The notes: a model not told the origin generated them from the sequence alone. A stretch of DNA of 64,000 nucleotides from Candidatus Uhrbacteria bacterium (GCA_903827265.1 CAIKHN010000003.1:24392-88391), one strand, 5' to 3'; shown: positions 23,378 to 48,853, numbered from the stretch's first letter. Made by a program: numbers and translations.

Positions 23378-24376
23378 CTATTTTCCGTATTGGCCCATGA
23401 TGAACGTGTCGACTGTTGTGGTGAGCGATGCGATAGTTTTTGCGAGCGTTGAAAGGTCTTTTCCTTCAGTCATGACGCAGATGACGTATGGTGATGTGTC
23501 GTACACAATGCCGCAATCATGGTGCTGATATGTTGTTGATCCATCGGTGTTTGTTGCTGAAGACTCGCCGAATTTATGCGCGACGATGTCTGACGGGTCT
23601 ACGCCGGCAACAAGAGCGTCCTTGTATGCGCTTTGAGAGAGCCACTCAAGTGAACGTTCTGAGTTCTGTTCAGAAATGAGTGTGCTGTTGTAGAGAATGC
23701 GAAGGAATCGCGAGTACAGCCGCGGGGAGATGGTGTAATTCGCATTGTCTGCGTATTGCGGAATTTCGAGGTCTTGCAGCGTTTTGTTGAGCACCCCCGG
23801 ATTGATATTCGCGATAAGCGTTCGTGACGCGTTGTTGTCTGAATAGACAATCATGAGCCGAAGCAGCTCCTCGACGGTATACGTCTTTCCAGCAATCGCC
23901 GTTTGTTCCGGAAGAATGTTCTGCTCGTTATCACTTGCGTATTCCTGAACCGCGAGCGTTTGTGAGAGGACTCCTGGATCGCTGTCTGCGCCTTCCATGT
24001 ACACCATGAGCGTCACGATTTTCATGAGACTTGCTGGCCGGAATTGGTCGTCGCCGTTTACTGCGGTCCAGGATCCATTCGCGAGACTTCTAACGTAAAT
24101 ACTTGCGCGAGAAATATCGCCAGACGCTTTTGCTCTATTAATTGCGTCATCGAGATTGTTTTTGAGTCCATCAAATTCTGTGCTCGGGGTTGCACTGTCA
24201 ATATTGCACGCGAGAAGCGGCTTTATGAGAGGGCGGGATGGAACAGTGATACGAAGCGAGTGTCCGGTGTTTTGGCTTGAATCTTGGCTGAGGATCTGGG
24301 CAACAGAAAAACCTGCAAGAAGTCCCGCTGCAAAAATCCCGGCACCATACCACGCAATTTTTCGTGAAGCCCGCAT
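23378..24376 (-). CDS. Serine hydrolase (class A beta-lactamase / PBP-like fold)
   Basis: 332 aa with signal anchor. SxxK motif (ASLMK), a later SDN-like motif (YSDN) and a KFG(E)S KTG-like triad. Confidence 0.6.
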   Translation of the reverse strand: MRASRKIAWYGAGIFAAGLLAGFSVAQILSQDSSQNTGHSLRITVPSRPLIKPLLACNIDSATPSTEFDGLKNNLDDAINRAKASGDISRASIYVRSLANGSWTAVNGDDQFRPASLMKIVTLMVYMEGADSDPGVLSQTLAVQEYASDNEQNILPEQTAIAGKTYTVEELLRLMIVYSDNNASRTLIANINPGVLNKTLQDLEIPQYADNANYTISPRLYSRFLRILYNSTLISEQNSERSLEWLSQSAYKDALVAGVDPSDIVAHKFGESSATNTDGSTTYQHHDCGIVYDTSPYVICVMTEGKDLSTLAKTIASLTTTVDTFIMGQYGK

Positions 24377-26495: not shown

Positions 26496-26580
26496 GGGAC
26501 CTCTTGGGTGATGATGAGATTATCATGATTGATGAAAGAGGGAAACGAACGTTGGCATTTCCCATTCGCCAATAGAAAAA

Positions 26581-26607
26581 CACGACCGGTGTGGTCGTGT
26601 TTTTCTG
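26581..26607. terminator. Bidirectional rho-independent terminator at the island boundary
   Basis: aaaaa-cacgacc-ggtg-tggtcgtg-ttttt. On the minus strand it terminates the 33787->26676 operon. Confidence 0.65.
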
Positions 26608-26615
26608 GCGGGACG
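26601..26615 (+). repeat. Distal att direct repeat (ttttctggcgggacg), a partial copy of the tRNA-Asp 3' end
   Basis: Perfect 15-bp match to 38370-38384, which spans the tRNA-Asp 3' terminus, in direct orientation. Confidence 0.6.
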
Positions 26616-26675
26616 TGGTGGAACGGGTAGGAATGCATTTTATGGCTATTTCAATTTAGAGGGGACAGCTTCTTC

Positions 26676-27212
26676 TTAATCTTCGTATTTTACAGTCCAA
26701 TGGGGTGAGCCAGTATGAAAGGAATTGGCAGAAACCTCAAAATCTCCAATACTTGTTATCTTATTTCCAAAAATGTCCTCGTAAGTTAAATTCAAGTCCA
26801 CGTTTTGTCCCCTAATCCCGTTCCAAACAGCTTCGTTCTCGGGAAGAGTCTCAGAGCGCGTCCAGGCGATGCTTCCATCTGGTTTGACAGAAGATGTGAG
26901 TTTTTTTGAGAAACCCAATTTAGGCACACTAAGGTTTATATTTTGAGCCAAACCTTGGCCTACGTTTTTGAAGCGAACCTCAAAGTAAAAATCTGTGCCT
27001 TGTCGTTCCGAGCCGACGACTATTTCGTCTGGCTCGAGAATCGGCATCAATGATGCCTGAGTTGCTCTTTTTGCTTCGAGGGCGGACTTAGCGGATTGTT
27101 TTGCGGAATACAAAGAGATAAATGCCGCAAGCACAGTTCCGATCGCTGCAATAACATCCCATGTATTGTTATTTTGCAGAGATACAAAGTGATGATGGAG
27201 ATTTTCGTACAT
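26676..27212 (-). CDS. Hypothetical membrane-anchored protein (third gene of the island operon)
   Basis: 178 aa, N-terminal TM WDVIAAIGTVLAAFISLY, low GC. It lies 42 bp downstream of the giant NTPase gene on the same strand. Confidence 0.5.
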   Translation of the reverse strand: MYENLHHHFVSLQNNNTWDVIAAIGTVLAAFISLYSAKQSAKSALEAKRATQASLMPILEPDEIVVGSERQGTDFYFEVRFKNVGQGLAQNINLSVPKLGFSKKLTSSVKPDGSIAWTRSETLPENEAVWNGIRGQNVDLNLTYEDIFGNKITSIGDFEVSANSFHTGSPHWTVKYED

Positions 27213-27253
27213 AGTTTCATTGTTGCAAAAAGGATCTGTATTCTGCCTTGCGT

Positions 27254-30200
27254 TTAGGGCGTACGCGGCGGAAGAAGGATGGGGCTTACATTTAATAAGC
27301 GATATTGTTCAATTTTCTTCACTTCTCCGTAGCCGTGTTCTTGATAGCGATACGTAGATTTTACCAGGTATCCCATCCTAAGTCCGTTTTGAGCTAGACA
27401 CTCTTCCAAAAACGCTTTATCGATTCGTAGCCACTGGCCGTAAGGCAAAGGCATATCGAAATTACTTCTCTCTTTCAGTCCCTCTATCCAGTCGCCATGC
27501 GTAATTTTCTCTCCGTTTTCATCGCTGTAGACATACTGAAAATCCTGAATTTCGCCTATGGAATCCCGTCTGATTCCTGGAGCGGGCAAGAGTTGAAGCT
27601 GGTAATCTCTGAAGTATTGCCAGAGATTTATGGTCAGATCTCGAGTCCGTGCAACTAGAGGGTAGACCATCAAGTCTTCTATTCGAGTCGGATCTAACCC
27701 AATCGGATATAGGCACGCCGCAGGATTGTCCAAAAAACTCAAAGGATAAGGAGTGTGTATTGGAATCAGGGCAAGACTTGATCTATCTAGTATTAATTCC
27801 GAAACCGCCTCCGCGGTTGGCATATTGGAGCCAACAACTTCGTAAGCAAAACCTATAAGAGAAATTGAATGAGAAGGATCGAGCTTTTCCGCAAGCGCAG
27901 GCATAACCGCGCCCTCAAAGGCCAAAAACGGTTTATCCTGGTTATTTGTGAGAATTGATTCAATTGGGATCTGCAGATCAATTTTAGTTAGATCCGTTTC
28001 CGCCATTTGACCTTCAGCTAGTCTCGGCCACCAGTCTGGAATTCTACCCACTAGTTTTTGCCAAATCCCCAGATCTACTGGCAATGTTGCATATGAGTAT
28101 TCAAGATAGAAATCTTCCGCGATCTTTCCATCCAAATAATACTGGTGGACTACTCTGAGAAACGCCGATCTGTATGCCTCGCTGAGAGATGTAGACATAC
28201 CTGGGATTGATGCCCCGCGTTCTCTTCCCTGGAAATACCCGGCGTCAGCGTTTAAGGAAATCCCGTTTTCTTGGATTAGGATCGATGAAGTGTACGCCCA
28301 TTGTTGAAGAAAACGACCACCGGTTTTTTTATCTATTTCTTTGGCCCGTTCGTGATAAATCGGAGCCAGAAAAGACCTGATGTGTCTATTGAAAAAGTTG
28401 TCAGCCAGAAAGGCGGAAGGCACGGCAGAAACCGCCCCAAAGGCGGGTAAAGCTTCATCGTCAAAATCTTCACCCAGAAGGAATGACAGCTCTACGAGCA
28501 ATTCTTGAATTACAACTGAATTTACACTCAAACTCAGAACGATGTCAGAAAACTTTATGTAAGAAAGCTCATCTCCCTTGCTTAGCGAGAAGGCTCTGAT
28601 CAAGGGTAAGAGGTGAATCGCAACAATGCTCTCAAGACAGATTTGCTTCAGGTTAGTTAAAAAATTTTTGTATAATTCCTCGCGCTTTGAAGAGAAGACG
28701 AATAATTGAGCGATTGCTGTTGCTGTTCGTTCGCGAACTAACGGACTTGGCCACGTCAGCCTTTGTATTAAAAGGTCAAATTCATCCGGTTCCTTCTCAG
28801 CATACTTAGCGTCCCCCCAGATGGGTTTGGCCAACTTAGTCTCAGCCATTAGCGATTCCGCGAAAGTGATTCCCGCCTCGGTGATTGCCACGGCATTTAC
28901 TAGATCCCCAAATAACACAAAGAAATCAACGGCACGCGCTATTGGCACAAAATATCTTAGACCACTGTCCCACCTATTACCTACAGCGATACTCCTTTCA
29001 AAAAATTCTAAATAACGCGTCGGATATTTATCTTGCAGAAACACCCAACGTGCCTCAGCTTTATTCTTATCCGTCCAATATAATTGCCAGCCATTGTCAT
29101 TAGCTTGCGCTCGACAAAGCAATTCGAATGCGCGTCCATTCTCGAATTCGTAGGCCAATGGATAGAGCACATCAAGTAGCTCGCCGCCCAGGTGATTTAG
29201 CTCCGTTTCAGGCACTGCCGCCATGAAACTCCTATAGATTTTTTCTTTATCATCATTCTCCAACCAATGAATAAGCCACCCATGTAAATATGTCTCCCGT
29301 TCCCAGGGGCTGCCGAAGGTTCTTTCTCTCAAGTTCTGCACTAATAGATCAGGAGAAACGCTACTAAAGTCCTCGGTGGAAGCCGGTCGAATGTATGGAG
29401 TCGAAGCATCTTTTTCTGGGTAAGTTATTTCTCCAAAGTAATCCGTAATAATACTCAAAGCTTTAGCAGCCCCTTCTTGTTTCTGTGCAAGGATGCCGAG
29501 CGACTTATATGAATCCTCATCAAGAGCTGTTGTTGCTAGTGCGGTAGATACGTCGGAATCATACGGCAATGACTGAACGATGACTTCGAAGATATCTTCT
29601 GCGTGAAATAAGTTCCCCGAGTCTGCATTTACATAGTAATCCTTATATAGAGCCGATCGATCAGATTTTCCAAAGATTTGAGCAAGATTCAGTGAAAGAT
29701 GATTAGTTTCATCTCCATCTGTATATTCAGTTACATTTTCTACAATCGGTGCAATCGATGCCAGCCAATGATGCATTTTTACTGCTTCAACACCTGCTGA
29801 TCCACAAGCCGAAATAGCATCCAGCACTCCATCTAGGTACATGTCCTTGTGATAGCCGTATCCGAGAAGATTTTTTGCAGAATCTAAAAGTAACTCTTTT
29901 GCACGTTCAGTGTCTCTCTGAATCCTGCAAAGTGCAGCAAGATCAGCGAAAGAGGTAGTCCTTTCTGAAAAATATCCGACTGATCCCTTAAGATTTTTAA
30001 CTTGCGTCTCGATAAATTGGATATGCGCATCGTCCACGAAGACAGGCTCACCCTGCTTAATGGAGAGTTCCAACAAATTAGCTGCATTAAAAAACGGAGT
30101 GCTCAGAATCGATGAGACGTCCCCGGGGGTAAATTGATACGAAGATCCAAGAGCCTTTTTTAGGATCAATAAATCTGAAAGATTTAAGGAAGTCGATGCC

Positions 30201-33166
30201 GTAAATGCCACTTGTAGTCCAAGTAAGTCGCGATCTTTCTCCCAGGTCAGTTTTCTGAGGGATTGCAGCGGCGCAAACAAGAGATGGTAGTCGATTTTGG
30301 ATTCACTTTTAATCTTTTGTGCAATCGCAAGACAACTACTTAGAAGAGCTGCAGATGCCTCAGATGCCCACATTTCCGGGGCAGCGTCTATCCAGCTTTT
30401 GACTTCTTCACCTTCATCTAGGAGCCCGTATAACAAGCCTGACAGGAATAGATCATGGAAAAATTTAGTCCACTTTTCTCTATCCAAATTCTGATACTCC
30501 TGAACTTTTATTGGAAGAGTTTCATACGCGGGGAGCGCTGGAAGTTTAACAGAAGGGTCTCCTTTTAACGCCCTGTAAACTTCATAGAGCGGAACAATAT
30601 GTCCAATCAGATTCTCTTTAAACTTTTCCGTTGCGTGAGTAACGTCGTATTTTGCGCATTTATCAAGGACGTCTCCAACCGTCTCGGGTGCAATTTTTTG
30701 TTGAAGAAGAAGTTTAACCTTCTCAACTTGATCGAGAGTTAAAAGCTGTGACGCATAAATAGCTAGTAAGTCTTGAGACCAACCCAAATCAGAAAATTGA
30801 GCTACGTATTTAGTTACCTTCTTCACCTCGTGTGTGCGGTCGTACGGAATCACCGTTACTAGAGCCTCGGTAATTTTTGGAATCTGGCCATTTTCTTTGT
30901 TCCGGTACTCCTGACGACCGTGCCTGCCCTGCAAGATCTCTATTACTTCCGGGATAATTACATCGCCAGACTTGTTGGCCATGTCAGCCGCGACAACAAG
31001 TGAAGTTGCGTCAAGATCCTTGAGCTTAAGTTCCTCGAGCATTCCTGGGTTCAGCCTTATCGCTTCAGCAAAAATACTTTTAGCCCCTTCTTCGGAAGAA
31101 TCCTTCGAGTTTGAGTAGTATTGTCGAAGATGGGAAAGCTGAAGAGCTTTGCCGAAATCCCGTTTTTTAAAAGCAGCCTCAGTTCCAAGTCGCAGGAGTT
31201 CTATGATCTGATAACTATTTCGAGGAAATGTAATTGCCTCAACAAGCCACTGTTTATCTAGCTTTAAAATGAGCTCAGGATTCCCGGTTTCGAATTCAAT
31301 TTTTGCTAGCTCCGCCCAGCGTAAAGAGTCGTAAGGGCACCCTACCAACCAGTCTTTAATTTGTTTCTTGAGAACTGCTTTACGCTCATCAAAATCAGGC
31401 TGTTGAAGAAGAAACACTTCAAAACTGTTGTGATAAATCGAGATTCGACCCTGTATATCAATCTTCGTGAGATGTTGTACATCTCTAAAGGCTTCAGCTA
31501 TATCCGAAGGGCTTGTCTCGAAGGAAGAAATGCAACCGATCAACTGTTCTTTTGTGAACGCAAAATTAACGCTCGCGATAGTGCAGAGAATGGTCTTCGC
31601 CTTATCGGAAAGATGCCACCATAAGGTCGTGTAGTAGCTCGCTATGTTGCCGCCGTATGGCAGGAGATCTTTGATGGTGTATTCGGTTATCAATGTATTA
31701 CCGTATCGCGACTTAATTTCGTTAAGAACGTAGCGAAGGTGAAGCGGATTGCCTTGGGTGAGGCTGAAGATTTTACTAACTACCTCTTTCAAAGCGCTTT
31801 CTTCCGACGGAAGATTAATGTTCACCGAGTTTTTTCTAATGATTCTATTTGCAGCATCATGGCTCAGTCCAGTGATCTTGATCCATTCTGCAACTGGGCA
31901 CTTTTGCAAGATTATTAGTGGTAGGTGTTCAGAGATCTGTTCTTGTGTACCCAAAATAATCCATAGGCCTCTTTGGGGGAAGCAGACGCTTTGCAGGAAC
32001 TTTTTCAGTTCCTCAATGTCGGCGTGTCTAACTACATGATCAAGGCCATCAACAATTAAAATAAAAGCTTTATTTTTTTGATTTGCAAAAGAAGCCGCAG
32101 CATTAATAAATTCTACTGGCGGAATTGATTGAGAATTTTTATGGGCAAGATCTCCCAAGGCATCCGGATATTCCTTGAATTGTGCCTTAATGGCTTCAAT
32201 AACCCTCTCCGCATTTAATCTTTCTTGTGAGTTAGTTTCCTCAGGCGAAAGATGGTAATGATGCCTTACGGACATTACTTCTTTATCCTCAAGAGTTGAG
32301 TATAATTTTGAAAGGTAGACACTTTTGCCCGTCCCTGGATTTCCAGTAAATACCTTGATCCCACCTTCAACTTTTTCTAAATCCTGAAGGATATTTTCAT
32401 GCACTGTCTCGTCAAAGAATTCAAAATCATTAGGGACAAAAAAGTCCTCTTCTAAACTTCTGGGAGCATCAAACTCGCACCAATCACGTAACTGGCCAAG
32501 GCTAATCGGTTGCGTCGGACTTTTTCTACTCTCTTTTTTTATCTGATTAAGGAGATTGACGACACCATTCTCTGTTGCGTTTAGATCCTTGTAGAAACGT
32601 TCAAAAATTTCCCTTTCGAATTCATCCAGGACTTTTTGTCCAAAATTAAAACTAAACTGTTCAAAGAAACTAGCCGCAACATCTTCTTCACCGATAGCTG
32701 CAATAATCTTTGCAAACAGATCGCTATCCGATGCTTTTATTGCACCGAGGTTGATCTTTTTATCGTCGCCTAAGAAACGGACTATATCAGCCTCAGCTCC
32801 GCTATCCGTGACCAGGCCCGCATACTTTATTTTGCCTTTAAGATCCCCCTGCTCGATAGAGTCAGCCCATTTTTTGAGCCAGGATGGTTTTCTTTTTTTC
32901 CCTACGAGCAGATCATCCCAAGACCATAGATTTTGCGGATCTTGTCGGTGTTTGACTTGATAAAAGTGGTAAAAGTCATCCTTGTCACGCAATATTATGT
33001 CGTCTAAATAAAAACCATCTGTACCGGATTCCTCGGGCGCAGCTTCAAATCGGATCGACCTAAAAGAATCGGGGTCGACTAGCCAATCGCGGCACAGTTT
33101 CAACCCCCAAAGATCCTGATAATCAAATCCGCTTCTAATCGAACTTGTAGTATTTCTTCGGGTCAT
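27254..33166 (-). CDS. Giant STAND/NACHT-type P-loop NTPase with N-terminal PD-(D/E)xK-like nuclease domain and about 1400-aa C-terminal helical repeat region (Avs-like antiviral candidate)
   Basis: 1970-aa uninterrupted ORF. The N-terminus is SGFDYQDLWGLKL...IRFEAAP...GFYLDDIIL...HFYQVKH (a D...QxK restriction-endonuclease-fold pattern). Walker A is GNPGTGKS; Walker B is AFILIVDGLDH, followed by GTQ. The rest is a long alpha-helical sensor-like region. GC is about 40% against about 50% in the flanks. Confidence 0.7.
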   Translation of the reverse strand: MTRRNTTSSIRSGFDYQDLWGLKLCRDWLVDPDSFRSIRFEAAPEESGTDGFYLDDIILRDKDDFYHFYQVKHRQDPQNLWSWDDLLVGKKRKPSWLKKWADSIEQGDLKGKIKYAGLVTDSGAEADIVRFLGDDKKINLGAIKASDSDLFAKIIAAIGEEDVAASFFEQFSFNFGQKVLDEFEREIFERFYKDLNATENGVVNLLNQIKKESRKSPTQPISLGQLRDWCEFDAPRSLEEDFFVPNDFEFFDETVHENILQDLEKVEGGIKVFTGNPGTGKSVYLSKLYSTLEDKEVMSVRHHYHLSPEETNSQERLNAERVIEAIKAQFKEYPDALGDLAHKNSQSIPPVEFINAAASFANQKNKAFILIVDGLDHVVRHADIEELKKFLQSVCFPQRGLWIILGTQEQISEHLPLIILQKCPVAEWIKITGLSHDAANRIIRKNSVNINLPSEESALKEVVSKIFSLTQGNPLHLRYVLNEIKSRYGNTLITEYTIKDLLPYGGNIASYYTTLWWHLSDKAKTILCTIASVNFAFTKEQLIGCISSFETSPSDIAEAFRDVQHLTKIDIQGRISIYHNSFEVFLLQQPDFDERKAVLKKQIKDWLVGCPYDSLRWAELAKIEFETGNPELILKLDKQWLVEAITFPRNSYQIIELLRLGTEAAFKKRDFGKALQLSHLRQYYSNSKDSSEEGAKSIFAEAIRLNPGMLEELKLKDLDATSLVVAADMANKSGDVIIPEVIEILQGRHGRQEYRNKENGQIPKITEALVTVIPYDRTHEVKKVTKYVAQFSDLGWSQDLLAIYASQLLTLDQVEKVKLLLQQKIAPETVGDVLDKCAKYDVTHATEKFKENLIGHIVPLYEVYRALKGDPSVKLPALPAYETLPIKVQEYQNLDREKWTKFFHDLFLSGLLYGLLDEGEEVKSWIDAAPEMWASEASAALLSSCLAIAQKIKSESKIDYHLLFAPLQSLRKLTWEKDRDLLGLQVAFTASTSLNLSDLLILKKALGSSYQFTPGDVSSILSTPFFNAANLLELSIKQGEPVFVDDAHIQFIETQVKNLKGSVGYFSERTTSFADLAALCRIQRDTERAKELLLDSAKNLLGYGYHKDMYLDGVLDAISACGSAGVEAVKMHHWLASIAPIVENVTEYTDGDETNHLSLNLAQIFGKSDRSALYKDYYVNADSGNLFHAEDIFEVIVQSLPYDSDVSTALATTALDEDSYKSLGILAQKQEGAAKALSIITDYFGEITYPEKDASTPYIRPASTEDFSSVSPDLLVQNLRERTFGSPWERETYLHGWLIHWLENDDKEKIYRSFMAAVPETELNHLGGELLDVLYPLAYEFENGRAFELLCRAQANDNGWQLYWTDKNKAEARWVFLQDKYPTRYLEFFERSIAVGNRWDSGLRYFVPIARAVDFFVLFGDLVNAVAITEAGITFAESLMAETKLAKPIWGDAKYAEKEPDEFDLLIQRLTWPSPLVRERTATAIAQLFVFSSKREELYKNFLTNLKQICLESIVAIHLLPLIRAFSLSKGDELSYIKFSDIVLSLSVNSVVIQELLVELSFLLGEDFDDEALPAFGAVSAVPSAFLADNFFNRHIRSFLAPIYHERAKEIDKKTGGRFLQQWAYTSSILIQENGISLNADAGYFQGRERGASIPGMSTSLSEAYRSAFLRVVHQYYLDGKIAEDFYLEYSYATLPVDLGIWQKLVGRIPDWWPRLAEGQMAETDLTKIDLQIPIESILTNNQDKPFLAFEGAVMPALAEKLDPSHSISLIGFAYEVVGSNMPTAEAVSELILDRSSLALIPIHTPYPLSFLDNPAACLYPIGLDPTRIEDLMVYPLVARTRDLTINLWQYFRDYQLQLLPAPGIRRDSIGEIQDFQYVYSDENGEKITHGDWIEGLKERSNFDMPLPYGQWLRIDKAFLEECLAQNGLRMGYLVKSTYRYQEHGYGEVKKIEQYRLLNVSPILLPPRTP

Positions 33167-33232
33167 TCATTGCTGTTAATGCAGATGTAGATTATCTCGT
33201 TTTAATGTCTTTGTCTTCTTGATTGTGATTAA

Positions 33233-33787
33233 TTAGAAAGATAGCTCCGTTTGCTTTCCATTCAAGCCTTGCGGGTGATAGACGAATTCCTCGTAGTCAG
33301 TGCTCGAATTCAAGCTATACAAGGCCATAAAATTCGCGTCGTAAGCCCCGTCCAATTTCTTTGAGTACAGGTCTTTCTGTGCCTCGGCAAAGAGCACGGC
33401 AGATTCCTCCGTCTTGAACACTGCTATCTTGGCAAACGTGTTGTTTCCGAATTCGGTGTGCAACTGCTTTCCTAGCGCCGTCATGGACTCATTGTTTAGA
33501 TACTGCTCCTGCACGACGATGGATTTCCAAATATAACCATTCTCCGAGTTGTCCCAGACGACCTCGTAAGGAATTTTTACCTGTGCCACTTCGTGTTTTT
33601 CTTCTGAACTCTCTATCATTCCAACCATGGCTATTGGCAAGAAAAACATAACCATCAAAACAGTGAGAATTGGATGTCTCCAAAACCATGATCCCAATTT
33701 CGCCCGGCAGTAGGGACAGCGTCTCGCCTTTGTATCAACCTCTTTACGGCACGATGAACAGGTCTTCACCTTTGGTGCGTCACTCAT
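33233..33787 (-). CDS. Zinc-ribbon membrane protein (first gene of the island operon)
   Basis: Preferred start is MSDAPKV at 33787; the ORF track extends to 33844. CSSCRKEV...CPYCRAKL zinc ribbon, then TM ILTVLMVMFFLPIAMVGMI, then a 130-aa extracytoplasmic domain. It lies 66 bp upstream of the NTPase on the same strand. Confidence 0.5.
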   Translation of the reverse strand: MSDAPKVKTCSSCRKEVDTKARRCPYCRAKLGSWFWRHPILTVLMVMFFLPIAMVGMIESSEEKHEVAQVKIPYEVVWDNSENGYIWKSIVVQEQYLNNESMTALGKQLHTEFGNNTFAKIAVFKTEESAVLFAEAQKDLYSKKLDGAYDANFMALYSLNSSTDYEEFVYHPQGLNGKQTELSF

Positions 33788-34099
33788 ATTGGCTCGATAA
33801 ATATTTATTAAGATTGAAAGGCGCGCAAAAACAAAAAGCGACACCCGGTGGTGTCTCTACCCAACCCATGCACGGATAGTGCACAGACTGTTTTAACCGG
33901 ATGCCGCTTTATGGGCGCTATCCGGAAATAGGCAAAAAAATGCCCTGTACGGGTTGAGTAGAGACTTCCGAAGTGTATAACAATGATCAAGGTTATTCAA
34001 CATCACGCAACATTTACCAACAGTGGTGTCAAAATTTGCGTGAGTTTACAAAAGAGGAGAAAATTACCGTAATCTAAATAAGAATGCGAATAAGAATCT

Positions 34100-34801
34100 A
34101 TGAGGAATGATGGTGTACGTGACCTGCATCTTGCGGTCGCATGGTCGTGTCGACGATTGGAAAAATTACTTGCGCTTGACCCTAAGTGCAGTGAGGTGAC
34201 TTATTGGTTCGCTCCCGACACGTCGGATGAAAAAGCTCCGCCACTCGGGGATCAAGTATTAGCCTTGAGCTATCTGGAAAACCAACAGGCGCTCGAGATC
34301 GGGCAAGCTGTCTATCGAAATGAGCTCTATAATCGCGTCGGTGCTCCAGAAATGTTCGGCGCGAAATCTGATGGCTATCGCGTGGAAATAGTTTCTAAGA
34401 GCTTCGAGAGAATCTGCAAAGAGTTACGTCCACTCATAGATAAGCTTGGTGTCTACCTTGTTCGCGCTGACCATGATTTTAATGACTTGAAACAGCCGAT
34501 TCTTGTTTTTGAGAATAAAGGCGCGGATTTTTACGTAGAGTTCAGCGGCGAACGAGTATCCATCAAACAACACTCTCGACAATTTGGCCTATTGGCGGCA
34601 TTAAAAGAACAGCGAGGACGTCATCTACCGGAAAAGGAATGTATTGAGGCGGCAAATCATTACGTGACCAAAGGGAAAACATTTATTACGGGCAAAGATA
34701 TTTACTTCACTCTTCGTGACATTAAGAAAAAGTTAAAAGTTGGAAAAAGTTGCGTTTTTCCAATCGAGCTAGAGAATAATCAGTATATTTGGCGCAAGTA
34801 A
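34100..34801 (+). CDS. Hypothetical protein (island cargo)
   Basis: 233 aa, divergently transcribed from the NTPase operon. No recognisable motif. Confidence 0.4.
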   Translation: MRNDGVRDLHLAVAWSCRRLEKLLALDPKCSEVTYWFAPDTSDEKAPPLGDQVLALSYLENQQALEIGQAVYRNELYNRVGAPEMFGAKSDGYRVEIVSKSFERICKELRPLIDKLGVYLVRADHDFNDLKQPILVFENKGADFYVEFSGERVSIKQHSRQFGLLAALKEQRGRHLPEKECIEAANHYVTKGKTFITGKDIYFTLRDIKKKLKVGKSCVFPIELENNQYIWRK

Positions 34802-34859
34802 ATAAAAACTCAACTCTCTCAACAAAACCTTCCACAATCGTAAATAGAGCCAACATGAA

Positions 34860-35132
34860 ATGCTCTCGGTGCAAAACATCGTGAGCATTTTTATGTCTGA
34901 TACATATACGACCACCAACTTCTATCTCGCCGCATTCCTCTGTGCATCAGGGGTTGTTTTTGTGTCGGGAGAGCGGTTGGCGGATACACGCCAGACAGCT
35001 TTTCACTTCGAAGAATCAATGAAACGCAAAGAGCTTTCAAGTGCGTTTCTTGTTGGTGAAGAAGTGGAAGTGAATGTTCATGCGTTTATTGCGCAGCTCA
35101 AACGTTTGAAATCAATCATTCACGACGGATAG
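34860..35132 (+). CDS. Small hypothetical protein (island cargo)
   Basis: 90 aa. An alternative start is MSDTYTT at 34893. Confidence 0.3.
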   Translation: MLSVQNIVSIFMSDTYTTTNFYLAAFLCASGVVFVSGERLADTRQTAFHFEESMKRKELSSAFLVGEEVEVNVHAFIAQLKRLKSIIHDG

Positions 35133-35440
35133 CTCGAATAATACTGGCCGATCAGGGTGCGCGAACCACTGTGCCCCGGCTGGATGCGACTTAAATCAGT
35201 GGATACATGAACCCGCGCCGATCCCCGCGTTATCCCGGGATGCGTCATAGGCAGTAAGGGCATGAACGTCACGAAGCGCTGATATGCCAAGGCGCACGTG
35301 CGTAAACGAAGTTAGCTCTACCGGGCGCTTCGATAGCAGGCATTGCAGGACGTCGGAGAGAAATCCGATCAACGTCCGAAGTATTCGCGTGATACCGCTT
35401 TATTCCCCATTTTGCGTCTCGGCAGTAAGGCAGAAAGAAT

Positions 35441-35830
35441 ATGAAAGACAATCGATTCCAAAAGATCATCTCGGACTACTTAGGACAATTGATCGGTACG
35501 AACGAAGAGGAAGCTTGGAACGTTCGTATGAACGGAAAACGGGCGCAAGTCACCATCCGTGGGCCTACGGGAATCTTGAAGAAAACCATCTCTCATCCCG
35601 GCTCACTTCTAAAGAAAAACTTTCACGATGAGCTAAAAAAGATAGGGAATGTTCAAAAAAAGGCCAATGTCATTTCATACCCGTTAATACAGCGGATTAA
35701 AGCGTTTCGGTTGGTAAAGCTGACCAGAAAACGCGGGAAAAGACAGTCATTAAAGTACGCAATAAAAAAACAGAGTGAGGAGACGGAAAGTAACAGGACA
35801 CGTGCACGTTTTCGAAATCAAAAGATTTAA
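35441..35830 (+). CDS. Small basic hypothetical protein (island cargo)
   Basis: 129 aa, Lys/Arg-rich C-terminus. Confidence 0.3.
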   Translation: MKDNRFQKIISDYLGQLIGTNEEEAWNVRMNGKRAQVTIRGPTGILKKTISHPGSLLKKNFHDELKKIGNVQKKANVISYPLIQRIKAFRLVKLTRKRGKRQSLKYAIKKQSEETESNRTRARFRNQKI

Positions 35831-35849
35831 AATCATAACAAGTAAAAAT

Positions 35850-36245
35850 ATGCATTCAGAACATCGAGAGCCCACAAAAGAAGAGGTGAGTGTAATAGAA
35901 AAGATCGACCTCGATTTGTGCGGAAGGGCTTTGGCAGGCGCTCTTTGGTTTCATGCCTACGATCAAGAGACATTGGTGCTGGATAAGGATGGTCTGGAAT
36001 GGTTGGTGTGGGAGCTTCTTGATGAACTCAGTCTTTCCGGCTTCATGTACCAAACAGTTTCTACCTTTGCAGAAAATAGCAAAATAAAACCTGTGGAATG
36101 TGCTGAGTGCAAAAAAGAAAATGGAGATGAAGAAGACGGAGATGGAATCAACTCACCATGCCCTAGCTGCGAACAGCCTCTGACCGCAGAGGCGGAATTA
36201 CCGCCTCTACCGCCACCGGGTTGTTCTGAGAAATCTGATTTTTAA
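35850..36245 (+). CDS. Small zinc-ribbon protein, paralog 1 (AYDQE-LxLDxxGL family)
   Basis: MHSEHREP start. WFHAYDQETLVLDKDGLEWLV core. C-terminal CAECKK...CPSCEQ. Confidence 0.45.
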   Translation: MHSEHREPTKEEVSVIEKIDLDLCGRALAGALWFHAYDQETLVLDKDGLEWLVWELLDELSLSGFMYQTVSTFAENSKIKPVECAECKKENGDEEDGDGINSPCPSCEQPLTAEAELPPLPPPGCSEKSDF

Positions 36246-36249
36246 ACCT

Positions 36250-36621
36250 ATGCACATCACGGATCCGAAAGGCTCGGAAGAATGCTCGGCCTGTTACGGA
36301 ACGGGGATCATTCCTAAATCGTCCGCAACCTCTGACCACTCGACCGAACCAATTTCGCACATCTCAGATTACATGCAGGAAATGCGCTCGATCTTCCTAA
36401 ACACAAAGAATAGGACGGTTTTTCAGCGAGTAGATTTAGCCGAAGATCTTTGGATCATTGCCTATGACCAAGAAGATTTAATTCTAGATGACGAAGGGCT
36501 CAAGGATCTCTTAAACATTTTCCTGTTCGGCTCTCATTATTACGATTCAATTCGTGACGCAATTAGTAAGTATATCGATAAATACGTTATGAACCGCGAT
36601 GCAGAAGAAGTGAACGAGTAA
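36250..36621 (+). CDS. Small zinc-ribbon protein, paralog 2 (AYDQE-LxLDxxGL family)
   Basis: N-terminal CSACYGTG. WIIAYDQEDLILDDEGLKDLL core homologous to the preceding gene. Confidence 0.45.
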   Translation: MHITDPKGSEECSACYGTGIIPKSSATSDHSTEPISHISDYMQEMRSIFLNTKNRTVFQRVDLAEDLWIIAYDQEDLILDDEGLKDLLNIFLFGSHYYDSIRDAISKYIDKYVMNRDAEEVNE

Positions 36622-36778
36622 ACAAAAGTTGCCTGTGCATCTCCCTAACGAAATCAAGACAGAAATCCGATTGCTGTTCTCCCGCCCCGGAGAGCAGCTT
36701 TCGGATTCTGACGTTGAGGAGATTGCACAGAACCTTTTGTCATTCGCCCTTCATCTATCACCTGCAAAGGGATAGAAT

Positions 36779-38416
36779 ATGACCATGAAGTATTTCATCT
36801 ATTGTCGCCGATCAAGTGACCGGGAAGACAAACAAACGCTCTCCATCGATGCTCAAATTCGTGAGCTAAAGGTGCTCGCAGAAAAAGATCATCTAGAAAT
36901 CGTTGACACCATCGTGGAATCACAATCCGCCTACAAAACAGGGCGGCCATTTTTCAATTCAATGCTTGAGCGCATCGAGCTTGGACAAGCAGACGGGATC
37001 ATCGTATGGCAACCAAATCGTCTTGCCCGTAATTCCTTAGATGGAGGGCGGCTGATCTACATGATGGATCAAGGGTCATTGAAAGAGATCCGCACCATGT
37101 CCAAGCTCTTCACGCGATCCGGTAACGACAAGTTCTTTTTGCAAATCGAATTTGGCATGGCAAAGAAGTCATCCGATGACACTTCGGATTACATGAAGCG
37201 TGATGCTCAATCCAAACTTCTCAAAGGCGAATGGACGGGTATGGCTCCCGTTGGTTATTTGAACGTTGATGCGCAAGGAAAGATTGCGGGCAACTTTTAT
37301 GATCACGACAAGCAGACACAACTATTAAAGCTTGGCAGGCCATTGCGCCGAATTGAAAAAGACCCGGTGCTAGCGCCCCTTATACGTCAGTTTTTTGATT
37401 ACTATCTTGCAGAGTACCGAACCTTGAAAGAGGCGGCGGCTTTCATGAATTCTCTCGGGGTTAAAAGTATCCGCCGTCATGGTCGCTATTCCATCAGCAT
37501 GGTGGAGAGAATTTTAAAGAATCCTTTTTACACCGGGCAGCTTCGGTATGAGGGGGAGCTTTTTGCTGGTGTACATGACCCCATCATTAGCACGAAGGAA
37601 TTTGAATTGATTTCGCAACGGTTTAACGGACACTCTCACCCAAAAGTAGTGAGTTACGATTTTGTGTATCGAGGGCTCGTGCGATGCGCTGAATGCGGTT
37701 GTTCCGTGGTGGGAGTCCACAAGGTAAAGCCTTCCGGTAAGGAGTACGAATACTACACGTGTAGTAAGCGCAAAGGTGAATGCGGCCAGAGACCATCAAA
37801 ACCTGCAGACATCGATATTCAGGTCGAAGAGCGTCTTCGTGCCATTCAAATAGATGAACGCGTGTGGGAGCTGTGCAAGAAGCTCTTACACCTTCATTAC
37901 GCGGAGCAAGTGGATAGCCAAGTCCTCATTCGTGAAAAGTGGCAAAAGGATCTCGGCAATGTCGATAAACGTACAAATGCCTTGTTGGAACTCTATATCT
38001 CGGGTTTGCTCGATAAAGAGGACTACACTAAGAAGAAAAACGAGTTGTTGTCTGAAAAGATGGCTCTGACAGAGAAGCTTAGTGACAGCGGGCAAGCGAC
38101 GACCAATTGGCTGCAGCAGACCGAAGACTTCTTTGGGTTGGCTCATGCCGCGTATGAGATATTTAAGAGCCCTCAGACGACGTTGGCACGCAAGAAACAG
38201 ATTGTGCAGGACATCGGTTGGAACTTAGAGATTTCCGAGGGAAAGCTTAATTGGCAATACAAAAAGCCGTTTGATTTTCTTGTAGAGCGACAACCAGCGA
38301 AAGTTTCGGTTGGAACTCGTAAATATGGCTTAGCTAAAAAGAAAAACACCTCTCTCGAAAGAGAAGTGGTTTTCTGGCGGGACGGACGGGACTCGAACCC
38401 GCAACCTCTGCCGTGA
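36779..38416 (+). CDS. Large serine recombinase (integrase)
   Basis: 545 aa. Resolvase catalytic domain YCRRSSDREDKQTLSIDAQ, then VWQPNRLARN, then a recombinase domain, then zinc ribbon CAECGCSV...YYTCSKRKGECGQ, then coiled coil. The 3' end runs 42 nt into tRNA-Asp. Confidence 0.8.
   Translation: MTMKYFIYCRRSSDREDKQTLSIDAQIRELKVLAEKDHLEIVDTIVESQSAYKTGRPFFNSMLERIELGQADGIIVWQPNRLARNSLDGGRLIYMMDQGSLKEIRTMSKLFTRSGNDKFFLQIEFGMAKKSSDDTSDYMKRDAQSKLLKGEWTGMAPVGYLNVDAQGKIAGNFYDHDKQTQLLKLGRPLRRIEKDPVLAPLIRQFFDYYLAEYRTLKEAAAFMNSLGVKSIRRHGRYSISMVERILKNPFYTGQLRYEGELFAGVHDPIISTKEFELISQRFNGHSHPKVVSYDFVYRGLVRCAECGCSVVGVHKVKPSGKEYEYYTCSKRKGECGQRPSKPADIDIQVEERLRAIQIDERVWELCKKLLHLHYAEQVDSQVLIREKWQKDLGNVDKRTNALLELYISGLLDKEDYTKKKNELLSEKMALTEKLSDSGQATTNWLQQTEDFFGLAHAAYEIFKSPQTTLARKKQIVQDIGWNLEISEGKLNWQYKKPFDFLVERQPAKVSVGTRKYGLAKKKNTSLEREVVFWRDGRDSNPQPLP
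38370..38384 (+). repeat. Proximal att direct repeat overlapping the tRNA-Asp 3' end
   Basis: ttttctggcgggacg is identical to 26601-26615. It covers the 3' terminal 10 nt of the tRNA (including CCA) plus 5 nt of flank. Confidence 0.6.
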
Positions 38417-38451
38417 CAGGGCAGCGCTCTAACCAGTTGAGCTACCGACCC
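38375..38451 (-). tRNA. tRNA-Asp (anticodon GTC)
   Basis: Reverse complement GGGTCGGTAGCTCAACTGGTTAGAGCGCTGCCCTGTCACGGCAGAGGTTGCGGGTTCGAGTCCCGTCCGTCCCGCCA. It has a cloverleaf, a CTGTCAC anticodon loop and an encoded CCA. It is close to E. coli tRNA-Asp. Confidence 0.85.
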
Positions 38452-39298: not shown

Positions 39299-42200
39299 AT
39301 GCTCAGGGGAATATTCCGAAAGGATTCGAAGGGCTCGGAAGGGGTGGTTCGACGTGATGCAGACAGGCTCGAGCGAACGTATCGGCACCATGATGCAATC
39401 CGAAAGGAGGCTGTAGCATACGTCGTAAGCCAAGACCAGTCGTTTCATCCACTTCGAAGGCTCTTTGCCACAGTGCGCCATGTTTTTGCATTTGCAGCAA
39501 AATTGGTGTTGCCAGATTTTATTGTTGGGCATCCGAATCTTTGGGACAACTTGAAAGTATTAGTGTCTGAGCGGTCATTTCGTCCGTTGCGTAGCGCGGT
39601 GGTTGCGTGGCTGATTTTCTCCATCATCGTCATGTCTTCAGGACTTTATGCGGTTATTCGTCCGCAGCGAGCCGAGGCGTCGGGAACGTTCTCGATGAAA
39701 ACGGGGTACTACATGGGTACTGGTGCCTCGCTTTCCATTTCTGGTGTCGGCTTTCGTCCGGAAGTGCTTATTATTAAGGCCGATACCGCTGCGGGTTCCA
39801 TGATCTGGAAAACGTCCACCATGCCGTCGGCGACGACGTCGTATCTTGGTGTTGCAACGGCCGACAACAACGACAGCGAAATCTCTCTTGATAGCGACGG
39901 GTTTTCCGTGTCGACAGCGCTTGAAGTAAATACGGTGAACGTGCGGTATGTCTATGCCGCGTATTACGGATCAGATTGCTCGTCGAGTGGCGTTATGTGC
40001 GTGGGGTCGTATACCGGTTCTGGTGCAGCGAGCCAGGTTATTTCAACAGGATTCCAGCCAGATTTAGTTATTGCAAAACGTACGAGCGCAGTAGTAGCGA
40101 ACTTCCGTACGTCGTCGATGCCGGCAAGCAACGCGGCGTTTTTTTCAGCAGCCGTGAACGATGCAACCGGTGTGTACTTCCAGACGCTCGATGTGGGCGG
40201 AAGTTTTACGGTTGGTGCAACAAACAACGGTTTAGCCGGCGTGTTTAACTATGTCGCGTTTAAAAACCTCGCGGGAAGCATGTATGTTGGAACGTTTACC
40301 GGCGACGGTCTTGATAACAAAAACATCGCTGGTGTGGGATTCGAGCCTGACTTTGCGCTCGTAAAACAAAACAGTGCTAACGCGGCGGTATTTAATACAA
40401 CGGAAACGTGGGGAGATAACTCCTCGGTTGCAACGGCAACGGCAAACACCGTGAACAACATTCAAAGTCTTGATGCGGATGGTTTTCAGGTCGGTAACTC
40501 CGTGAACGTGAATGCGAACACGGTGGTGAGTTTTTATTTTGCCATGGGTGGAGCTCCAGACCCAGCGCCGGCCGGGACGTTTTTAATGGAGCGTGGTTCA
40601 TATACCGGTACTGGAGTTGCACAGTCTATTACCACAACGTTCCGACCAGATTTGGTCATGATTAAAGCGAACGCAACGCAATACGGTGTGTGGTCGACGA
40701 GCATGGAAAACAACCTCACGCATTATTTTGCGAACTCTGCGGTTGGATTTGCTGACGGTATTAAGTCCATGGCCGCTACAAGCTTTACTGTTGGTGCAAA
40801 CGCAACGGTGAACGGCTTAGGAAATACGTATGAGTACACGGTGTACGGCAACGCAACGACGCCACAACGTGGTGCCGGTGCTGCAGACTTCATGATTGGA
40901 ACGCATACCGGAAATGGTATTACCGCGCGAAGCATTGACCATCTTGGCATAACGCCGAGCATGATTACCATGACACGTACCATTACGACCGCTGCGCTGA
41001 CCATGTGGAAAGCTGCAAGTCCAACAATGGCCGACAATACTGCGGCATATTTTTCTGCGACTGCTGACGTTACCGACGGAACGGCATTCGCGGCGATAGG
41101 AACAACAGCATTTAGCCTTGGGACTGCTGCGACAACCAATGCGGCGGCCGGTTCTTACGTGTGGTTTGCATTTAAAGAAGGCGCACAGTTCGACATTGGA
41201 AGTTATACAGGTAGTGGTATTTCAGGAAAAAACGTGACCGGTCTTGGATTTAACCCTGCGTTTGTTTGGACAAAGGGTGCTACGGCAGTACAGGGTTCAC
41301 ACCGTTCAACGTCAACAACTATTTCTGGAGCAACCGCGCAGTATTATACGAACATCGTGAACGCCGCTGCGGTAATTATTGCCTTCGTGAGTGACGGATT
41401 TACTGTGGGTACTGCCGCAGAAGCCAACTCAAACACCGTATCGTACCGTTATTCGGCATGGAAGAGTACGTCTTCTGCAAACGCTCCGAGTACGCCAACG
41501 AATAGTTCTCCTGCATCGAGCGCAACCGGGCAAGGCTTAACCGTCACGCTTACGGGCTCTGCGTACAGTGACCCGGATTCAAATGCGCAGACTGATGCTA
41601 TGTGGCAGGTGGACGACGACGCCGATTTTGCGACTCCTGTGTGGTCTCGAACAGCGGGAGCGGCAGAAGCAACCACATCGGTTACGTCAGGAAACGGAAC
41701 GTTTGCGAATGAACTTGCAGGAGATACCGCCCTCGACCACAACACAACATACTATTGGCGCGTGAAATATTCCGATGGAATGTGGTCGAGTTGGTCGACG
41801 GGAACGTCGTTTACCACAAACACTATCTCGACGCCAACACATTCGTCGCCAAGCGATGGTGGAACGGTAACAACACTCACGCCAACCTTAACAGCATCAG
41901 CATTTTCTGATGCGCAAGGTGGGCATTCGAGCGCGTATGCACAGTGGCAAATTGATACGGGTAGTACATTTACGTCGCCTTTGTATGACTCGGGAACGGT
42001 AAGCTACGGAAATTCTCTTGCGGTTCCAGCGGCAACGCTTTCCGACAAGACCACGTATTATTGGCGCGTTCGTTACGAAGACTCCACAAACCAGTGGTCG
42101 CCATACTCAACAGCAACGAGGTTTTACGTTGCGCAATCGCTTGTAGCGGTGTACCCGCTGTTTAGTGGCTCTGTTGTCGACCAAGGCGATTCGGTGAATT

Positions 42201-48454: not shown

Positions 48455-48853
48455 GGGCCTGACGGGTTTCGATACTCTTCGGATCCTCACAAATCACGCC
48501 GGAAGGGCACCATATTCCGAAATCCCGTGGTGCAACGAGATACTTGCAAACGCATTCTCAAAGGTGAAGGCAGCTATCGCTTCGGCGTTTAGCGTTCCTT
48601 CATTCTCATTGGTTACCGCCTAAGGGCCGCAACCCATCCACTTCGCAATGCCTCATAGCGGAGTTCGGGTGCAATATTATGAGACTATAGGCGTTCTCTT
48701 GTTCGCTCAGAGAACGTAACCCGTTGCAGCGAAATCGTGTCGATGATTCTTGTTCCGTCTTATCATCGCCCCGTACTTGACGGAACTGCGCGTGGAACAA
48801 ATTTGTTTGGTGAGGTGGGGTAGACGAGGGTTCAACTCCCTCCAGGTCCACCA
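48455..48853 (+). ncRNA. ssrA: tmRNA (ssrA)
   Basis: 5' GGGCCUG pairs with 3' CAGGUCC-A-CCA to give a tRNA-Ala-like acceptor stem with G3:U70. T-arm GGGTTCAACTCCC. Length is about 400 nt. smpB is 1.6 kb downstream. Overlapping protein ORFs are rejected. The tag reading frame was not resolved. Confidence 0.65.

Follow-up and report, generated by a model that had tools for sequence, protein, structure and literature searches.

The combination of an N-terminal Cap4 nuclease, a STAND NTPase and a large sensor has already been described for the antiviral proteins Avs3 and Avs7 (PMC13581612). The Cap4 nuclease-STAND-sensor protein of Salmonella enterica, SeAvs3, binds the phage large terminase, tetramerises and degrades double-stranded DNA (dsDNA) (PMC13581612; bioRxiv 10.64898/2026.04.30.721860), and in both EcAvs2 and SeAvs3 the beta-rich C-terminal sensor touches the terminase ATPase (bioRxiv 10.64898/2026.04.30.721860). 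Avs1, Avs2 and Avs3 all sense terminase, the predicted structure of Avs1 resembles that of Avs3, and split-sensor variants of Avs1 exist (bioRxiv 10.64898/2026.04.30.721860). Here, we analyse a gene for a 1970-amino-acid (aa) protein with this architecture in a 64,000-nucleotide stretch of DNA from Candidatus Uhrbacteria bacterium (GCA_903827265.1 CAIKHN010000003.1:24392-88391), referred to below as the window, with positions counted from its first letter. The gene (27254-33166, minus strand, stop codon included) is the middle one of three successive minus-strand open reading frames (ORFs) in the region 26676-33787, which a preliminary description had taken for a novel three-gene, Avs-like antiviral system with two membrane-protein partners.

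Our analyses indicate that the locus is a known kind of defence and not a new three-gene system, and that the Avs-like reading can be narrowed down to membership of the Avs3/Avs1 structural class. The large gene, a single-gene, Avs3-like antiviral STAND protein, is likely to encode a stand-alone Avs-type sensor of this class, carried as cargo by an island at a tRNA-Asp gene and acting through a mechanism like that of SeAvs3. This explanation draws directly on the domain identities, the intact invariant motifs, the resemblance of both halves to the SeAvs3 fold, a family conserved over its full length in many phyla, mobile and defence-associated surroundings and the lack of a conserved partner.

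Domain architecture of the 1970-aa protein

The large ORF is full-length and without disruption, and its product has the tripartite architecture of Avs proteins, with an N-terminal effector, a central STAND NTPase and a large sensor (at least 400 aa). The effector is a Cap4-type PD-(D/E)xK dsDNA nuclease (residues 11-194; 32585-33136, minus strand), recognized by the Pfam family Cap4_nuclease PF14130 with 34.2 bits (cutoff 26.2) and by the PADLOC LmuA/Effector endonuclease models. The STAND/NACHT NTPase module (residues 261-600; 31367-32386, minus strand) was delimited by the Pfam NACHT match, by an hhalign comparison with Avs1b and by its invariant residues; within it, residues 272-446 match NACHT PF05729 with 29.4 bits, a small margin over the cutoff of 26.7. 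The Pfam searches placed the N-terminus in a nuclease family and the NTPase in the NACHT/STAND group, not in a non-nuclease fold or a housekeeping family.

The sequence motifs of both enzymatic domains are intact. The nuclease motif string reads FEAAP...DD(55-56)...YQVK(70-72), with D56, Q70 and K72 as the putative catalytic residues, and the NTPase contains Walker A GNPGTGKS (K281), Walker B IVDGLDH (D373/D376), GTQ and GNPLHLRY, together with the histidine of IYHNSF in its winged-helix region. Every one of the motifs that the preliminary description had picked out by eye (FEAAP, D...QVK, GNPGTGKS, DGLDH and GTQ) is present, and D56, Q70, K72, G275/P277/G278/G280/K281 and D373/G374/L375/D376 are invariant across an alignment of 42 family members.

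About 1370 aa follow the NTPase, of which about 1,150 aa form an alpha-solenoid in the AlphaFold2 model, succeeded by a beta-rich domain. The alpha-helical, TPR-like solenoid sensor (residues 601-1744; 27935-31366, minus strand) contains two invariant motifs, GYGYHKD (residues 1102-1108) and TDGDET (residues 1149-1154), and the beta-strand-rich C-terminal domain (residues about 1745-1970; 27257-27934, minus strand) was recognized by DSSP of the model and takes the place that the C-terminal sensor has in Avs2 and Avs3. Searches with Pfam, PADLOC, NCBIfam and PDB sequences returned no identification for the C-terminal 1370 residues. The sensor is nearly as conserved within the family as the enzymatic domains, with a mean pairwise identity of 33-38%, the nuclease and NTPase values being 41% and 47%, respectively.

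Structural similarity to SeAvs3

AlphaFold2 models were obtained for residues 1-800 (pLDDT 88.4) and residues 771-1970 (pLDDT 88.6, pTM 0.80), the latter folding as an alpha-helical solenoid that gives way to the beta-rich domain from about residue 1745. Comparison of the C-terminal region with Avs sensors by structure prediction, as the preliminary description had proposed, ranked 8DGC, the structure of SeAvs3 with the large terminase of phage PhiV-1 bound, first among PDB entries (Foldseek E 1.5e-11, TMq 0.46, 1374 columns); the remaining PDB matches were generic solenoids (E of at least 3e-3, TMq about 0.12). For residues 1-800, the best PDB match was again 8DGC (8dgc_A; Foldseek E 3.2e-16), eight orders of magnitude better than the runners-up, 6mfv (E 4e-8) and EcAvs4 (E 6.7e-8). 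With both halves of the protein pointing to SeAvs3 and with Cap4 and NACHT above their Pfam cutoffs, the nuclease/NTPase/sensor architecture of Avs type proposed from the sequence was upheld.

The resemblance extends over the whole protein. The Cap4-type nuclease, STAND NTPase, long alpha-helical sensor and beta-rich C-terminal domain occur in the same order as in SeAvs3, both are single-gene systems, and the size of 1970 aa compares with chains of about 2000-2030 aa. In addition, the layout of the model, an alpha-solenoid with a C-terminal beta domain, matches the terminase-binding layout described for Avs2 and Avs3. Lee et al. 2026 grouped sensors into clusters at Foldseek E<=1e-10, TM>=0.40 and 80% coverage; judged on E and TM alone, and with a query that starts at residue 771, the comparison of the sensor with 8DGC would fall narrowly inside these thresholds. 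The differences from SeAvs3 lie in the sequence and in the hosts, which for the family of the window protein include Patescibacteria-like genomes and archaea.

Several observations weigh against placing the protein with SeAvs3. The identity to SeAvs3 is just 11-13% in structural alignments (about 12% in the sensor) and is invisible to sequence and profile searches: 8dgc was not found at E<=1 by phmmer or by family-profile hmmsearch of the PDB sequences, and these searches, made with both the protein and the family profile, returned noise only (major vault protein, CheA and adenylate kinase). No Avs model of PADLOC or NCBIfam extends over the sensor, and none named Avs3 was among the matches to these libraries, the presence of an Avs3 model in them not having been verified. 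A sensor-only hhalign comparison with the Avs1b sensor gave a probability of 0.9%, the sole hint of similarity being a collinear 'WPSPLVRERAA' / 'HPxWLRREKAA' stretch. Finally, other Cap4-STAND families sense other proteins, as exemplified by Avs7, which responds to the major capsid protein (PMC13581612).

An alternative hypothesis is that the protein is an Avs-type sensor belonging to a family of its own and responds not to the large terminase but to some other conserved protein of a phage or archaeal virus, or to a perturbation of the host. The lack of detectable sequence homology to the Avs1b sensor or the Avs3 chain in the PDB is consistent with this hypothesis, as is the existence of at least 90 structurally distinct STAND families with varied triggers, including three unrelated capsid-protein sensors (PMC13581612), and the invariant polar motifs GYGYHKD and TDGDET could mark a family-specific ligand site. 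However, for both halves of the protein SeAvs3 outranks every other match by a wide margin, the sensor match would narrowly pass the published clustering thresholds for E and TM, and the solenoid with a C-terminal beta domain is the very layout that contacts the terminase ATPase in Avs2 and Avs3. We regard a separate family with another trigger as rather unlikely. To a similarly limited degree, we entertain the possibility that this Cap4-STAND family (about 1,960 aa) is not a divergent Avs3/Avs1 and represents an Avs family of its own that is still uncharacterised. Its unusually conserved sensor with the GYGYHKD and TDGDET motifs may then respond in an undescribed way to its trigger or to some feature of the terminase, for example a bound nucleotide, and the recognition of viral protein patterns would extend to the viruses of ultra-small bacteria and archaea.

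Relation to Avs1, Avs7 and other Cap4 proteins

Among named models, Avs1b comes nearest in sequence, over the NTPase only (PADLOC E 1.5e-17, residues 261-591). The match to the NCBIfam Avs1b equivalog NF041810 is likewise confined to the NTPase (42.3 bits against a cutoff of 1500). For a direct comparison, a genuine avs1a-avs1b-avs1c operon was retrieved in one locus (L085) and an Avs1b family alignment was built; a full-length hhalign comparison with this alignment gave a probability of 98.9 over columns 278-696 only, and hhalign of the C-terminal beta domain against the C-termini of Avs2 and Avs1b was not significant. The PADLOC check proposed in the preliminary description thus yielded domain-level matches (Avs1b for the NTPase and LmuA for the nuclease), and no whole-protein system.

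Avs1 resembles the window protein in its NTPase, the closest by sequence from the nucleotide-binding domain to the winged-helix domain, in its length (about 1910-1935 aa for Avs1b) and in the occurrence of split-sensor variants, since relatives of the window protein are likewise split, near residue 1460. In contrast, the effector of Avs1b is a trypsin-like protease, whereas that of the window protein is a Cap4 nuclease, and the two sensors have no profile-level similarity. Moreover, the genes flanking the large ORF are not Avs1a (an MBL hydrolase) or Avs1c, and have no PADLOC or NCBIfam Avs match.

Avs7 (SeAvs7) shares the Cap4 nuclease, the STAND NTPase and a TPR-like sensor with the window protein and is activated by tetramerisation (PMC13581612), but it senses the major capsid protein with EF-Tu through a sensor common to Dsr1, and is set apart, by its description, as a different family; no structure or sequence of Avs7 was matched in the PDB. 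The N-terminal 200 residues of the window protein belong to the same DUF4297/Cap4 PD-(D/E)xK family as Cap4, the CBASS effector, and LmuA of Lamassu; however, only the effector domain is common to them, as the window protein has no SAVED domain, no cyclic-nucleotide sensing and no SMC partner. The protein is best described as a member of a sequence-distinct family within the Avs1/Avs3 structural class.

Another unnamed Cap4-STAND family was encountered on the Salmonella enterica plasmid pX1-88 (IncHI2; locus L086, 6176-12241), which encodes a 2021-aa 'ATP-binding protein'. The nuclease and NTPase of this protein match those of the window family (hhalign probability 99.4, N-terminal 680 residues), its sensor does not, and judged by its sequence it is a protein other than SeAvs3.

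Integration at tRNA-Asp

The G + C content of the window is 0.42-0.46 between roughly 26.6 and 38.4 kb, compared with about 0.50 in the flanks. This segment corresponds to an integrated island of 11.8 kb (26616-38369), delimited by its composition, attachment (att) repeats, a recombinase and a tRNA. At its right edge, a 15-bp att repeat (38370-38384) overlaps the 3' end of an intact tRNA-Asp(GTC) gene (38375-38451, minus strand; ARAGORN; Rfam tRNA 67.6 bits), the integration target. Its direct-repeat partner at the left edge, TTTTCTGGCGGGACG (26601-26615), is a remnant of the tRNA-Asp 3' end, and the same island end is conserved in a related locus, L081. As the 15-bp repeat with the tRNA 3' end occurs at both edges, the three minus-strand genes are the distal cargo of this island. 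A large serine recombinase of 545 aa (36779-38416, plus strand), whose 3' end overlaps the tRNA, was identified by its Pfam Resolvase, Recombinase and Zn_ribbon_recom domains and by an XisF/Ccr-like NCBIfam match. With the recombinase domains, the direct repeats and the tRNA target all present, the island was integrated in tRNA-Asp by this type of recombinase; L081 has a matching tRNA and an adjoining recombinase remnant. The chromosome around the island encodes FtsA, FtsZ and pyruvate kinase.

A bidirectional intrinsic terminator hairpin (26574-26606) is predicted at the left edge, with folding energies of -21 and -21.8 kcal/mol on the two strands (z -7.0 and -4.4), and L081 has an equivalent hairpin after its tRNA remnant. 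The preliminary description had noted a bidirectional terminator at the island edge, and the hairpin is indeed strong on both strands. However, it does not belong to the island: it is found immediately beyond the left att repeat and represents the native terminator of tRNA-Asp, which the minus-strand genes use. A second hairpin (33855-33840) was considered as a terminator and rejected, its fold being no better than that of shuffled sequences (z -1.1).

Elsewhere in the island, two adjacent plus-strand ORFs (35775-36245 and 36250-36621) without any Pfam or PHROG match have a common 'YDQE.L.LD..GL..L' stretch and may be paralogues, and a DUF5659 ORF (34860-35132) lies near this pair. In L081 (6889-7871), a deletion runs from inside the serine recombinase, of which residues 364-545 are left, into the upstream gene; the L081 island has probably been immobilised, with its NTPase ORF intact.

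The two small flanking genes

The arrangement of three minus-strand ORFs was confirmed, with an upstream ORF (33233-33787; 184 aa counted from the ATG at 33787) and a downstream ORF (26676-27212; 178 aa) on either side of the large one. Gaps of 42-66 bp had been reported; the first gap is indeed 66 bp, and the second is 41 bp, not 42 bp. In its mechanical version the upstream ORF reaches a GTG at 33844, which was set aside as the start, the ATG at 33787 being more plausible; public gene calls use even shorter starts. The upstream protein contains a zinc ribbon (CSSC-x11-CPYC), one hydrophobic (transmembrane) segment and a soluble domain, in agreement with the N-terminal CxxC...CxxC ribbon and transmembrane segment first noted by eye, and the downstream protein consists of one N-terminal hydrophobic segment, a transmembrane anchor, and a domain of about 140 aa.

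This arrangement raises the question of whether the three genes form one defence system, in which the zinc-ribbon and downstream membrane proteins would act together with the nuclease-STAND protein, perhaps as its membrane effectors or regulators. The common strand and short gaps would be expected of such a system, no minus-strand terminator-like site was seen between the three genes when looked for, the upstream gene still stands beside the NTPase in 79%-identical relatives, and multi-gene Avs operons exist (avs1a-avs1b-avs1c). However, the co-occurrence of the small genes with homologous NTPases, which the preliminary description had named as a test, was not found: tblastn with both small proteins against 80 loci from GTDB genomes with NTPase relatives detected no homologue of either. 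When two loci with a 79%-identical NTPase (L081 and L082) were added, matches appeared there only, over residues 69-203 of the upstream protein only, and the downstream protein had no homologue across the 82 related loci. Clustering of the neighbouring ORFs over 83 loci revealed no recurring family except the serine recombinase (13 loci), and for each side, just 3 of 46 loci have a small same-strand membrane ORF within 150 bp. No PADLOC model was matched by either small protein. As functional analogues of Avs1a and Avs1c, the two genes were rejected for want of both similarity and conservation.

The relatives of the upstream protein, four among 5.8 billion proteins, are informative about its role. 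At L090, L091 and L081, a relative precedes the 79%-identical NTPase, and a deletion has fused it to a recombinase remnant, so that its zinc ribbon and transmembrane segment are lost (as in L081 and L090) while the NTPase ORF is intact. In L089 (162-5553), a full-length relative with 62% identity precedes a Cas4-like PD-(D/E)xK/RNase_H_2 protein and an SNF2 helicase that resembles DrmD/BrxH/ZorD, and in L087 (495-3862), a further one precedes an unrelated ORF of at least 899 aa. As these relatives precede differing cargo, the upstream gene behaves as part of the island backbone, with a slot for exchangeable cargo next to it, which suggests that the tRNA-Asp islands of this lineage can take up different defence cargo beside the zinc-ribbon gene.

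The downstream protein forms a singleton 90% cluster. A search of 1.84 billion representatives gave 24 weak relatives, several of which are repeats inside 2000-3400-aa proteins (E 1e-5 to 1e-8); judging from these sequence similarities, its soluble domain is more likely to be a membrane-anchored surface domain than part of a defence system. The 41-nt island end and tRNA remnant that follow the downstream gene in the window come immediately after the NTPase stop in L081. As L081 keeps the NTPase and the island end without the downstream gene, this gene is an optional, unrelated passenger. The flanking membrane-protein genes are thus co-transcribed neighbours at most, not partners; we consider a three-gene system very unlikely, and the novelty that had been attached to the membrane partners was not sustained.

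Distribution of the family and its defence context

The single-gene, Avs-type protein, by comparison, has a large family of its own. Among 5.8 billion proteins, 152 relatives were found, nearly all of 1950-1985 aa, aligning over the full length with 30-79% identity, and 298 loci that encode a relative were detected when 185,579 species of bacteria and archaea were scanned with a single genome each. The bacterial hosts comprise groups of Patescibacteria (Paceibacterota, Shapirobacteria, Falkowbacteria and Kaiserbacteria) as well as Bacteroidota, Chloroflexota, Elusimicrobia, Nitrospira, Clostridia and Proteobacteria, and the archaeal hosts include Methanosarcina and Thermoplasmatales. Distant relatives (25-27% identity) are carried by 36 plasmid records, which include conjugative plasmids from Klebsiella, Serratia, Pseudomonas and Cupriavidus. 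No relative was found in phage genomes by tblastn, and we found no report in the literature on Avs/AVAST in the Candidate Phyla Radiation (CPR)/Patescibacteria. The patchy spread over phyla is indicative of horizontal transfer.

The surroundings of these relatives include plasmids, recombinase islands and known defence genes. Lee et al. 2026 ask of an Avs protein either such a defence-associated setting or a defence effector domain, and the window protein, with its Cap4 effector, agrees with this. On a Moraxella plasmid, a truncated family member adjoins a protein that scores 1896 bits on the PADLOC Avs2 model. In a sample of 145 neighbouring ORFs from 41 loci (120-700 aa, up to two nearest per side, within 5 kb), strong matches were obtained to SoFic, HamA (Hachiman), AriA (PARIS), type II methyltransferases and several PADLOC candidate systems. 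That the protein is instead a STAND NTPase with a signalling or housekeeping role outside defence, or a relic that is no longer active, as the generic NCBI names of its relatives ('ATP-binding protein', 'dsDNA nuclease domain-containing protein') might allow, is extremely improbable given the Cap4 effector with invariant catalytic residues, the intact Walker motifs, the undisrupted full-length ORF, the patchy cross-phylum distribution and the island, plasmid and defence-neighbour contexts, and neither a conserved syntenic housekeeping context nor vertical inheritance across a phylum was seen.

Some relatives are split into two adjacent ORFs with the break at about residue 1460-1490 (L083, L014, L018, L024 and L011). 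On the Klebsiella pneumoniae plasmid pE16KP0218-1 (L083), the two ORFs lie at 4980-9401 (1473 aa) and 9401-10843 (480 aa). The 480-aa ORF can be aligned from its very start to the window protein, where it covers residues 1461-1714, and the concatenated pair matches the family sensor profile with a probability of 99.9 over 1090 columns. The second ORF is named 'multidrug DMT transporter permease', yet it aligns to the last third of the sensor, and this annotation looks wrong.

Proposed mode of action and implications

For a stand-alone Avs-type sensor of the Avs3/Avs1 structural class, the mode of action can be proposed by analogy with SeAvs3, from which we infer what triggers the protein, how it oligomerises, that infection is aborted and, indeed, that it acts in defence at all. 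In the uninfected cell, the protein would be an autoinhibited monomer. Upon infection, the C-terminal alpha-solenoid and beta-rich domain would bind a conserved phage protein, for which the large terminase subunit is the foremost candidate, with about an even chance of being the actual trigger. Binding would cause the NACHT/STAND NTPase to oligomerise (into a tetramer in Avs3), and the oligomer would bring the N-terminal Cap4 domains (D56/Q70/K72) together into an active nuclease that may cleave dsDNA indiscriminately. The resulting degradation of dsDNA would kill the infected cell before phage release.

The hosts of the family include Patescibacteria-like genomes and archaea, whose viruses are poorly known. 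A large protein family so far named only generically is, in its structure, an Avs3-class antiviral sensor, and its genes occur on plasmids and mobile islands of many phyla. Because the family is not recognised by PADLOC 2023 and NCBIfam, defence inventories of such genomes undercount it. The split pair of the Klebsiella plasmid (1473 + 480 aa) offers a tractable experimental entry point to the trigger.

Other features of the window

Just outside the island, an ORF at 23378-24376 (minus strand) resembles class A beta-lactamases or PBP-like proteins (NCBIfam bla_class_A E 9e-18, far below the cutoff). A transfer-messenger RNA gene (48455-48853, plus strand; Rfam 93.7 bits) has a long predicted tag peptide, ANAFSKVKAAIASAFSVPSFSLVTA. 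Between about 55000 and 61000, the G + C content rises to 0.59-0.64 compared with about 0.50 elsewhere, and this region may be a second foreign segment; nine Cu-binding_MopE repeats (E 4e-81) were recognized in one of its ORFs (58929-61253, plus strand), and no Pfam match was obtained for its other long ORFs that were tested. The window also contains two giant, surface-protein-like ORFs on the plus strand, in accordance with the pilin-anchored, giant-protein genome inferred in the preliminary description. One (3314-12727; 3137 aa) combines an N-terminal T4SS_pilin-like segment with TIG/Ig-like domains and a C-terminal VWA domain, and the other (39299-46729; 2476 aa) contains DUF7483, Ig-like and MG2 domains.

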